Source of the DNA: an uncultured Methylomirabilota bacterium
GTDB lineage: Bacteria > Methylomirabilota > Methylomirabilia > Methylomirabilales > 2-02-FULL-66-22
Direction: 5' to 3'
Assembly: GCA_963845565.1 (NCBI GenBank)
Contig: CAWJSJ010000001.1
Span: 352,001 to 416,000, forward strand
Length of the DNA: 64,000 nt
Part shown: positions 17,195-19,222 of the stretch, piece by piece
Layout of the letters: the number at the start of each line of letters is the position of its first letter
Position numbering within the stretch: position 1 is the first letter of the stretch
Notes under the pieces: generated by a model
Database searches by the model: none
What the model was told of the DNA's origin: nothing
What the model saw: the letters and a program-made list of their open reading frames with translations, nothing else
Made by a program: the position numbers and the translations under genes

Positions 17195-17373
17195 GAGGCA
17201 GCGCTCCTTCTCTGCGAGGAGGGCCTACGGGCCGCACGCTAGCGCGGTTCATAGGCCGGTGTCAAGGCCCGAACGGGACCCTCGGTGGTGGTGCGCGATT
17301 GACCGGGAACCTTTGACCGGTTAAGGTACGTGAATCGTTCCGGGTCGTGGGATCGATGGGCGTGGAGGGAGCT

Positions 17374-17859
17374 ATGCGAAGAGGCGGGCGAGGTGTTCGA
17401 GAGGTCGATCCACGGCGGCGGCTCTGGATTCAGAGCGTCATCGGTTTGGCCCTCGTGGCCGGGGTGGCGGCCATCTGGGCGGCGGTCCCGAGGGATGGTG
17501 CGGCCGGTGAGCCGGCGACGCATCGCGGCGGGCCGCGATTGGCTATAGATCAGGAGTTGATCGACTTCGGCGCCGTGCGCTACAACCAGTTCGTCGAGGC
17601 GCGCTTCCGTTTGAAGAACGTGGGGGATCAACCGCTCCGGTTGCCCGCGTCGCCGCCCATCGAGGTCGTTGAGGGCTGTTGACCGCCCAAGTCGGTCGTC
17701 GGTTCGACGACCCTGATGCCCGGCCAGGAAACCGAACTGTCGGCTCGTTTCACCATGCCGCCTGGGATGGGCGGGCCCCATCTTTTCGTGATCCGATTGC
17801 AAACCAACGACATCGTCCAGCCGGAACGAACGCTCCGAATCCGTTCCCTGTGGCAGTAG
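17374..17859 (+). CDS. Probable selenoprotein: TM-anchored DUF1573-like Ig-fold protein, Cys-Sec motif (EGC-U-PP), TGA at 17680-17682
   Basis: The frame continues 58 codons past TGA (PPKSVVGSTTLMPGQETELSARFTMPPGMGGPHLFVIRLQTND...) to TAG 17857-17859, completing the IDFG...FRLKNVGDQPL...L.PG....L...TND pattern. SECIS-like hairpin follows. Confidence 0.8.
17694..17712 (+). promoter_or_regulatory. Bacterial SECIS-like stem-loop
   Basis: GGTCGTCG-GTT-CGACGACC (8-bp stem) starts 11 nt after the UGA. Loop GU sits at positions 23-24 counting the U of UGA as 1, as in the E. coli fdhF SECIS. Confidence 0.75.
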
Positions 17860-17879
17860 GGCGCGTGCGGGGGAAGCCT

Positions 17880-18557
17880 GTGAGGTCATTTTCCTGGTGG
17901 GGTGCGGGATTGGTGACGTTCTGCGTCGGCGTGCTCGCCATTGGGGTGGCGGGCGCCTGGGCAGGGGAACGGAAGGAGGAGTGGACGCGAGACGATATTA
18001 TTGCCGCGCTCGAGCGCGGGCCCGGGCCCAGCATGGGGCCGGCGACGGCCCCGGTCGCGATGGTGTACTTCACGGATTTCCAATGCGGGTACTGCCGGAA
18101 GTTCGTGAAGGAGACGCTTCCCAAGCTCGAAGAGCAGTACATTCGGCCGGGAAAAGTCCGCCTCGCATACCGCCATCTCGCGATCCTTGGGGAGGCCTCC
18201 GTGCAAGCAGCGCGGGCCTCCTCCTGCGCGTTTGATCAGGGGAAGTTTTGGGAATACCACGATATCCTCTTTGCGAACCTGTCACCGCTTGCCTTCACCG
18301 CGGCCCGACTCAAGCGGTACGCTGCCGACCTCCGGTTGGACGAGAAGACGTTTGCTGCGTGTCTCGACAACCCGGCGTACGGCAAGCGGGTGGAAGCCGA
18401 AACGATGATCGGTCGGGCGCTAGGGGCGACGGGGACCCCGGCGTTTCTGCTCAACGGACAGCTCCTGCTCGGCGCGTATCCCTTTGAGGTCTTCCGGCAA
18501 GCCCTCGACAGCATGCTCGCCTCTCCGCCCCGCAAGACGCCCGGTCAGCCTCGCTAA
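17880..18557 (+). CDS. DsbA/DsbG-family thiol-disulfide oxidoreductase, exported
   Basis: Signal/TM segment; FTDFQCGYC; GTPAFLLNG. The real start is likely GTG 17880, not 17679. Confidence 0.85.
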   Translation: MRSFSWWGAGLVTFCVGVLAIGVAGAWAGERKEEWTRDDIIAALERGPGPSMGPATAPVAMVYFTDFQCGYCRKFVKETLPKLEEQYIRPGKVRLAYRHLAILGEASVQAARASSCAFDQGKFWEYHDILFANLSPLAFTAARLKRYAADLRLDEKTFAACLDNPAYGKRVEAETMIGRALGATGTPAFLLNGQLLLGAYPFEVFRQALDSMLASPPRKTPGQPR

Positions 18558-18715: not shown

Positions 18716-19222
18716 ATGCACAATCCCCATCCAGAATCGGAACACCTGCGACGCATCTTCGAGGATACCCAGGTGCTGCGAAAACCGGTCACGGGCATCG
18801 TGACCGGATATCATGTCCTGCCATACGTCCTGGTGGCGCCGGATGAGGAGCAGGGCCAGCGGTCGGTGGAGATCCGGGGAAAGATTCGGGTCTCACCCCG
18901 TATGATCTTGACGCCGCGGCATCTGGGCCAGACGTACGAGCAACTCTTCGACGATCCGCAGCTCATGGATCGAACCCTCTTCGGGCGAGTCTTCAGCTTC
19001 CTGTACGCCGGTCGGCAAAACGTGCAGTTGGAGAGCGAAGAACTCCGGATCACGCGGGTCGACCGCGACCCGCGAGCGCAGATCGAACGAGCGCTGGATG
19101 AACTCATGCGGGGGGAGATCCTGGATACGGGCGTGATCCTGGGGCCGAACGTCAAGTTCTACCCCGTATCGATCGAGCGGTTCATCTCCGAGATCCTCGA
19201 TCGCGAGTTTCCACACGCCTGA
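18716..19222 (+). CDS. Conserved-looking hypothetical protein (168 aa)
   Basis: Clean ORF with typical codon usage; no family recognised. Confidence 0.7.
   Translation: MHNPHPESEHLRRIFEDTQVLRKPVTGIVTGYHVLPYVLVAPDEEQGQRSVEIRGKIRVSPRMILTPRHLGQTYEQLFDDPQLMDRTLFGRVFSFLYAGRQNVQLESEELRITRVDRDPRAQIERALDELMRGEILDTGVILGPNVKFYPVSIERFISEILDREFPHA

Follow-up and report, generated by a model that had tools for sequence, protein, structure and literature searches.

Selenoproteins with an immunoglobulin (Ig)-like domain of the DUF1573 type have been described before. The table of a 2026 review (PMC13188914), which holds 119 prokaryotic selenoprotein families, has an entry that goes back to the study of the Olavius symbiont, 'DUF1573 domain-containing protein, PF07610, motif UGC', and the table of the GOS paper gives the DUF1573 family as OS_HP2 (pfam07610, UxC) (Zhang & Gladyshev 2008), a family introduced one year earlier (Zhang & Gladyshev 2007). 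Selenoproteins in which selenocysteine (Sec, U) directly follows a cysteine are likewise known, the CU entries of the review table being SaoL, HgcA, SaoC, MbdU, a 2Fe-2S protein and KCU-star (PMC13188914). Here we describe a gene in which the two features meet. It lies at positions 17374..17859 of the forward strand of a 64,000-nucleotide stretch from an uncultured Methylomirabilota bacterium (GCA_963845565.1, contig CAWJSJ010000001.1, positions 352,001 to 416,000; hereafter the window), is interrupted by an in-frame TGA, and very probably encodes a DUF1573-like protein with an adjacent Cys-Sec pair.

The gene's family and OS_HP2 (model NF041425) share the superfamily PF07610 and the loop, after the same strand, in which Sec is found, and 36 of the 38 family members that we aligned match NF041425 at E<=0.01 (best E, 9.6e-11). 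However, the product of this gene reaches 18 bits against a family cut-off of 100, and the OS_HP2-like relatives lack the M..GMGGPH loop that is present here. The position of Sec also differs. In OS_HP2 it occupies the first Cys of U-x-C, whereas in an alignment with CGC relatives the first Cys/Sec of C/U-G-C falls on Cys102 and Sec103 stands one column later. By the rule of the review, the same domain with another Sec position makes a separate subfamily (PMC13188914); since the Sec position differs, the gene's family is separate from OS_HP2. As judged by sequence comparison, it forms a branch of the DUF1573 selenoprotein superfamily marked by the CU pair and by its Met/His decoration, and is a distant relative of OS_HP2, not a member of it. 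CGC/UGC-type relatives occur in the same phylum and score 64-76 bits to NF041425. One locus, L144 (G047:C69:6489-6776; 64 bits), is a selenoprotein of the OS_HP2 kind (...ITTS-U-GC-TATVV) whose U column also falls on Cys102, and its CGC (Cys) relatives, in five genomes of another genus, reach 70-76 bits.

With the MerB-like SaoL, HgcA, SaoC and MbdU, which act in metal or organometal biochemistry (Haft & Gwadz 2023; Haft & Tolstoy 2025), the family has in common the adjacent Cys-Sec pair, a soft-metal theme and truncation at the CU in databases (10.1101/2022.07.06.499078; PMC13188914), but those proteins have unrelated folds and belong to unrelated families, none of them an Ig-like DUF1573. 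No CU-type Ig-like family stands in the portions of Table 1 of the review consulted here, nor is the family described in the titles and abstract openings of the literature located on DUF1573, bacterial or Methylomirabilota selenoproteins, or Cys-Sec pairs. Neither DUF1573 nor Ig-like appears as a term in deep-Sep (PMC12013277), and NCBIfam release 20.0 does not capture the family. The original prediction, made from the letters of the window, had considered an extracytoplasmic location unusual for Sec. DsbA-like, DsbG-like, thiol:disulfide interchange and TonB-receptor selenoproteins are extracytoplasmic. Given that all four have entries in the review table (PMC13188914) and that a DUF1573 selenoprotein family (OS_HP2, UxC) had already been published, the location is less exceptional than was thought.

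The in-frame UGA and its homologues

From ATG 17374 the frame runs through 102 sense codons to the TGA and then for 58 codons more to TAG 17857-17859, and the next gene, a Thioredoxin_4/DsbA gene with a CGYC motif, begins at GTG 17880, 20 nt past that stop; the continuation of the open reading frame (ORF) beyond EVVEGC-stop, up to this neighbour, had been predicted exactly so. Read through, the gene gives 161 residues (...IEVVEGC-U-PPKSVVGSTTLMPGQ...FTMPPGMGGPH...), with Sec103 in the context EVVEGC-U-PPKSVVGSTT. The choice of start is consistent with database homologues of 102 residues that terminate in ...EGC.

A word-indexed protein database search returned 86 homologues, of which 61 end exactly in ...GC, 24 read GCC and one reads GCW; among the GCC proteins, 22 are 156-182 residues long and two are shorter pieces. 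When representatives at 50% identity were searched exhaustively, 1238 matched, and the best 150 sort into 59 truncated at GC, 49 with GCC, 30 long multi-domain proteins, one GCW and 11 others, mostly CC followed by a different residue. In the species-genome search, which covered 251 genomes of the window's phylum, 36 genomes yielded 37 matches that span the site, and every one has exactly one in-frame TGA and continues to residue 157-161, save one that stops at 145, at its contig end. The 30 genome loci that were fetched all read G-C-U-[PS]-[PS]. A metagenome scan confirmed 226 relatives, and in the best 80, to which all metagenome counts below refer, TGA stands at the site in 80 of 80. Thus, in all 110 Sec-form loci (30 genome and 80 metagenome) the TGA is kept together with its frame, with protein conservation on both sides. 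The corresponding codon in eight Chloroflexota genome loci is TGC or TGT (8/8), so that Cys aligns to the UGA there as it does in the 24 GCC homologues; both the C-C and the C-U form sought at EGC*PP therefore exist, the former in Chloroflexota. The segment beyond the TGA, taken for protein in the original prediction, is indeed conserved as protein with synonymous variation, and in all homologues residues 104-161 remain so to the last residues (invariant F, M, M, G, H, N, D, S and W).

The preservation of frame and spacing in 110/110 loci, the Cys homologues that pass uninterrupted over the site, and the conservation, as protein and as RNA, of the stretch from the TGA to ATG 17716 make it extremely unlikely that the TGA is an ordinary stop, with a product of 102 residues and a downstream frame that is a separate small gene or non-coding. 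Such a product would, moreover, end after the third main strand of the structure model described below, as half a beta-sandwich. Gene callers do terminate there (61 of 86 database entries), ATG 17716 does begin a 47-codon ORF in the same frame, and selB appears broken in this assembly, a point to which we return.

Very unlikely, too, is a read-through without Sec, by a near-cognate tRNA (Trp, Cys or Arg) or through a lineage-wide reassignment of TGA. Two database entries, P0004 and P0124, do print Trp at the site (GCWPP) and retain the VVGSTT peptide; this Trp is probably a TGA translated by the source under another code table. Among the long frames of this genome more end in TGA (1093 of 1864) than in either other stop, and in 33 of the 110 loci it is also the terminal stop of this same gene, about 58 codons past the internal TGA; TGA is therefore not reassigned. 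The site aligns with Cys, and not with Trp or Gly, in 24 full-length homologues, it is followed by a conserved SelB-type hairpin with fdhF spacing, and tRNA-Sec, selA and selD are present, all of which speaks against a read-through of that kind.

The public annotations inspected (61 of 86 entries) cut the gene to about two thirds, and the Sec forms figure as hypothetical proteins of 102-107 residues; the source databases name a truncated form 'hypothetical protein' and a Cys form 'DUF1573 domain-containing protein', and the few names that they give for homologues point to NC10/Methylomirabilota. About one in seven species genomes of this selenoprotein-rich phylum carries the family, as do many metagenomes from wetlands and sediments, and recognising it adds a distinct CU-type subfamily to the selenoprotein catalogue. 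Five lipoprotein-like variants of 200-258 residues (P0146, P0150, P0160, P0175 and P0188) hold two tandem domains, the first with a single Cys (GCD) and without Sec, the second ending in ...EGC and presumably a database-truncated Sec form.

The hairpin and the selenocysteine machinery

Downstream of the UGA, after a spacer of 11 nt, the RNA can form the hairpin GGUCGUC-GGUUC-GACGACC, in which, with the U of UGA as 1, UCGGU stands at 13-17 and GGU at 22-24. The fdhF gene of E. coli K-12 (UGACACGGCCCAUCGGUUGCAGGUCUGCACC) has UCGGU at 13-17, GGU at 22-24 and an 11-nt spacer as well, so the identity of positions that the original prediction had claimed is exact in the fdhF record. U17 is bulged in the E. 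coli fdhF selenocysteine insertion sequence (SECIS). Here, in contrast, the helix is a perfect one of 7 bp with loop GGUUC, and U17 is paired with A31; the fdhF geometry thus holds for the spacing and the loop letters and fails for the bulged U.

Folded as a single sequence the hairpin region is no better than shuffles (z -0.5), a result that carries no weight alone, so the significance of the hairpin rests on the comparison of homologues. A codon table of 28 Sec-form genes, whose proteins share about 40-90% identity, shows next to no synonymous variation at codons +4 to +10 past the TGA (GCG 20/20, GTC 28/28, GTC 27/27, GGT 24/28, CAG 16/16, ACG 27/27, ACC 26/27), whereas comparably conserved Gly, Leu and Thr codons elsewhere vary (GGC 12/28 at Gly-2, ACC 14/28 at Thr+17). 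Over 27 distinct sequences, pairing holds in every one of the 189 stem cells, the changes being one compensatory G-C to A-U (L044) and two wobble pairs. In L134, a metagenome relative 53% identical, other residues are encoded and the stem AACCGUC-AGUUC-GACGGUU is found in the same place with a 3-nt shift. A stem-loop soon after the UGA, with G/U in its apical loop, is accordingly conserved at the RNA level against synonymous drift, and the covariation looked for in it, one compensatory pair and one alternative stem, is present if sparse. In the Cys forms the VVG.TT peptide is unconserved and both arms of the hairpin are retained in 0/8. Two of these, L017:4304-4348 and L020:4157-4201, have only the 5' arm (GCGGTCGTC), without the 3' arm, and L017, whose genome has selB above cut-off, also retains the loop letters GGTTCG; here a SECIS may be decaying after a change from Sec to Cys.

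The tRNA-Sec on which a Sec reading depends is present, one being found by ARAGORN in the own genome (C4:9777-9871), where selA scores 578 bits. selD (C2:254715-255656, 343 bits) has one in-frame TGA (...ACAG-U-ASKLG) and is a selenoprotein gene itself; its 7-bp hairpin, about 10 nt after the UGA and with the loop at 21-23, is close in geometry to that of Table 1. An FdhA-like match with one TGA was not counted as a selenoprotein, the TGA lying at the edge of the match in a context unlike a Sec site.

Four observations weigh against the selenoprotein reading. The first is selB (own genome C4:5502-7391; L003 1063-2952), which is split in this assembly, where three insertions of one base each, one of them within a run of six G, put the parts of its GTPase domain into three different frames; if real, the insertions would leave the strain unable to insert Sec. 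Contigs of three other studies, which were placed on the selB region at an identity of at least 90% and may stem from related strains, omit one base at or beside every site of insertion: X7 and X8 do so at the first and the third site, and X1, X7 and X8 at the G run. Because these contigs do without the extra bases, the insertions are taken as consensus errors of this six-contig assembly, and other genes of the assembly may also have been hit by indel errors. Of the 21 genomes of the genus, 17 have a selB above the family cut-off, among them 10 of the 11 that, apart from this genome, carry the gene; a selB defect specific to this strain is possible. Secondly, an Rfam scan of 17300-18000 at E<=10 matched no SECIS family. 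Thirdly, covariation in the stem is thin, 4 of 7 pairs being invariable, because the stem hardly varies. Finally, one metagenome contig (L131:2668 onward) keeps the TGA and has lost the ten hairpin codons (VVGSTTL.PG); this contig could be a defunct copy or an assembly error, or its UGA could be decoded independently of a hairpin. The selB oddity, among other things, keeps our confidence short of certainty. Taken together, the conserved frame, the exchange of Sec for Cys and the constraint on the RNA lead us to regard it as highly probable that 17374-17859 is a single gene for a 161-residue selenoprotein, in which the UGA would be decoded as Sec by SelB and tRNA-Sec under the direction of the 7-bp hairpin with its GGU loop 11 nt downstream.

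Fold and invariant residues

The AlphaFold2 model, built on the 38-sequence alignment, has a mean predicted local distance difference test score (pLDDT) of 90.2, with block means of 96-98 from residue 51 onward, and consists of a helix (13-37) and eight strands between residues 56 and 160. Foldseek matches it to HYDIN, to the OCRL ASH domain, to CEP192 PapD-like domains and to the uncharacterised 2qsv; a profile search against solved structures brought up HYDIN repeats and 2qsv (E 0.03) and nothing more closely related. Pfam assigns PF22544 (HYDIN/VesB Ig-like) at 29 bits and DUF1573 (PF07610) at 27.7 bits, above the gathering threshold of 26.1, and all 38 aligned members match the latter at E<=0.01. 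Queried with the natural Cys homologue P0088, a protein atlas returned only DUF1573/HYDIN-like clusters. The DUF1573-like domain with a Cys motif that the original prediction recognised is borne out by these matches and by Cys102, which aligns to the first Cys of the CGC-type relatives. The C-G-C motif that those relatives define after the third strand is itself absent, C-U-P-P or C-C-P-P standing in its place, and only the column of the first Cys is common.

The residues that are invariant in the 38 Sec and Cys forms include G101, C102, P104, M128, M132, G134, H136, D146, S158 and W160, and position 103 is Sec or Cys in all of them, save for the W of P0004 as printed. Generic Ig repeats of the same superfamily have neither the CC pair nor the M..GM.GPH loop, and we therefore regard the CC/CU pair together with M..GM.GPH as a site specific to this family. 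In the model, the Cys-Sec pair comes after strand 96-100, and the Met/His loop links strands 119-126 and 134-143. Loops in these two places share one end of an Ig-like sandwich, with the two strands side by side. Cys102 and Sec103 would thus sit, in the modelled fold, at one end of the sandwich and probably beside Met128, Met132 and His136, so that the five residues would cluster in space.

The Arg-rich and then hydrophobic N-terminus suggests an extracytoplasmic protein, either anchored or cleaved after IWA, and basic-then-hydrophobic N-termini are found in the full-length Cys homologues too. Such a segment would anchor or export the protein, and the DUF1573/ASH-type sandwich would form outside the cytoplasm. 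A twin-arginine reading of RRRLWI was dropped, the RR pair missing in many homologues. The Ig-like part offers a compact model of about 110 residues, predicted with confidence, for the role of Sec beside Cys in an exported metal or redox site, and natural Cys-Cys counterparts exist for comparison with the Cys-Sec form.

Table 1. Features of the gene and its surroundings, in coordinates of the window
Feature	Position	Strand	Basis or remark
Divergent sigma-54-dependent activator, AAA+ and Fis helix-turn-helix	15113..17194	-	N-terminal 350 residues without family assignment
Shine-Dalgarno-like GGAGG	17364..17368	+	Sequence reading; 5 nt 5' of the ATG
Coding sequence, first part, residues 1-102	17374..17679	+	N-terminal helix and first half of the Ig-like domain; ends at Cys102
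Hydrophobic helix after the Arg-rich N-terminus, residues 13-37	17410..17484	+	AlphaFold model
Ig-like beta-sandwich, residues 56-160, ASH/PapD/DUF1573 type	17539..17853	+	AlphaFold, Foldseek, Pfam PF22544 and PF07610
In-frame TGA, probably read as selenocysteine, residue 103	17680..17682	+	Homologue comparison
Coding sequence, second part, residues 104-161 and TAG	17683..17859	+	Second half of the Ig-like sandwich
Putative SECIS hairpin	17694..17712	+	7-bp stem, 17694-17700 with 17706-17712; loop GGUUC 17701-17705
Loop M128-PPG-M132-GGP-H136, candidate soft-metal ligands	17755..17781	+	Invariance in the 38-sequence alignment
DsbA/Thioredoxin_4 protein, CGYC, own N-terminal hydrophobic segment	17880..18557	+	Pfam 90.4 bits

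Gene neighbourhoods and possible function

The gene directly downstream, which encodes the DsbA-like CGYC protein, recurs at many loci. A homologue starts 189-309 nt past the TGA in 5 of 30 genome loci and in 36 of the 80 metagenome loci, of which 80 loci 57 extend for 900 nt or more on the downstream side; it is possibly the redox partner of the Cys-Sec protein. Its closest NCBIfam family is the Rcas_1661 thioredoxin-like (seleno)lipoprotein (147 bits, below the cut-off of 190), a type that the review table lists as a DsbG-like UxxC selenoprotein family (PMC13188914). The neighbour in the window is an all-Cys form, with CGYC.

In the deeper Sec branches and the Chloroflexota Cys forms, the DsbA-like gene is missing and other neighbours take its place. 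They comprise PCYCGC proteins (PF13798), which reach 65 bits with the OS_HP4 CYCXC (seleno)protein model, COX2/NosZ-CuA-like cupredoxins, singly or as a pair, that show the pattern C...C...H..M, a NapH-like Fer4_5 polyferredoxin, a membrane protein of 460 residues that begins 2-4 nt past the gene in 4 of 8 Cys loci, and, in deeper Sec and Cys lineages, a cupredoxin-cytochrome c fusion. Among genome loci, the Cys versus Sec counts are 6 versus 6 for cupredoxins, 5 versus 3 for the polyferredoxin and 7 versus 1 for PCYCGC; at metagenome Sec loci, PCYCGC lies beside five, the polyferredoxin beside four and a cupredoxin beside four. P-type ATPases of the copper type (HMA/YHS) flank the cluster in L017 (Cys) and in the near-identical pair L118/L119 (Sec), and DUF305 and an ArsR regulator occur once each among the neighbours.

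The set of Cys, Sec, Met, Met and His, taken with these gene neighbourhoods, leads us to propose, tentatively and at a little less than an even chance, that the Cys-Sec protein binds and hands over a soft metal, most likely Cu(I). In the window's lineage, the membrane-anchored DsbA-like neighbour would hold the Cys-Sec pair in the proper redox state; elsewhere the partners would be the PCYCGC proteins, the CuA-type cupredoxins and the polyferredoxin. PCuAC, Sco and TlpA form the periplasmic copper-delivery set for CuA sites. The likeness to that set would lie in a small Met/His beta-sandwich outside the membrane, together with a membrane-anchored thioredoxin-fold protein, near CuA-type cupredoxins; the difference is that the ligands here would include Cys and Sec. 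Given that the product matches no PCuAC or Sco family of Pfam or NCBIfam at E<=1, the likeness is one of function and context. A more specific version, in which this is the first Sec-bearing extracytoplasmic copper carrier, holding Cu(I) through Cys-Sec and Met/Met/His and loading or guarding CuA-type cupredoxins, is conceivable but doubtful. If true, Sec would have been fixed throughout the phylum since selenolate beats thiolates for Cu(I) or resists periplasmic oxidation. Irrespective of that version, the gene's context ties three unexplained families (DUF1573-like, PCYCGC and NapH-like polyferredoxin) to CuA cupredoxins and copper pumps.

The same selenoprotein could also work without a metal, the Cys-Sec pair being a redox centre that cycles between selenol/thiol and an eight-membered selenenylsulfide, exchanges electrons with the CGYC protein and so reduces or oxidises an extracytoplasmic substrate. 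The thioredoxin-fold gene only 20 nt downstream, its recurrence in metagenome loci and the (seleno)protein nature of its nearest NCBIfam family all fit this alternative. In animal thioredoxin reductase the redox centre GCUG sits on the flexible C-terminal tail of a cytosolic flavoenzyme; that motif, too, is a Gly-Cys-Sec able to form a selenenylsulfide, although here it is found within the exported Ig-like domain, in one of the internal loops. Bacterial selenoproteins are, besides, mostly redox proteins (PMC13188914). Yet a pure thiol relay leaves the invariant Met128, Met132 and His136 unexplained, and the deeper branches and the Cys forms have no DsbA-like neighbour and lie beside cupredoxins, PCYCGC proteins and copper-type ATPases. 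We therefore hold a purely redox role to be possible but rather unlikely; a smaller share still is left to a function other than a soft-metal site or a pure redox relay. Metal binding and redox cycling are compatible and do not exclude each other.

Three observations count against the soft-metal proposal. At the place of His129 in the common MH.GM motif this protein has Pro. Queries with copper ATPase, DUF305 and ArsR sequences detected no copper genes in the window, and queries for the PCYCGC/cupredoxin/polyferredoxin cluster gave only weak, probably unrelated matches in the own genome.

In L017 (2972-6893), L021, L118 and L132, the PCYCGC protein, the CuA-like cupredoxin, the DUF1573-like CC/CU protein, the Fer4_5 polyferredoxin and the cupredoxin-cytochrome c protein come together in a recurrent, apparently undescribed gene cluster. 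A copper-type P-ATPase adjoins it in two lineages, and in three Chloroflexota loci it adjoins a HisKA_3 kinase or a LuxR-type response regulator, that is, two-component genes.

Upstream, the sigma-54-dependent activator adjoins the gene in 22 of 80 metagenome loci and in 8 of 30 genome loci, five of these eight on the strand opposite to that in the window. No sigma-54 promoter was recognised upstream of the gene, the pattern matching in only 3 of 102 loci and always at far offsets, which are unreliable for short loci, and a scan for sigma-70 promoters and terminators gave nothing exceeding shuffles. On the other side, positions 18716-19222 of the window hold an ORF of 168 residues without a Pfam or NCBIfam match; 25 of 80 metagenome loci have it at 70-99% identity, in every case directly 3' of the DsbA-like gene.

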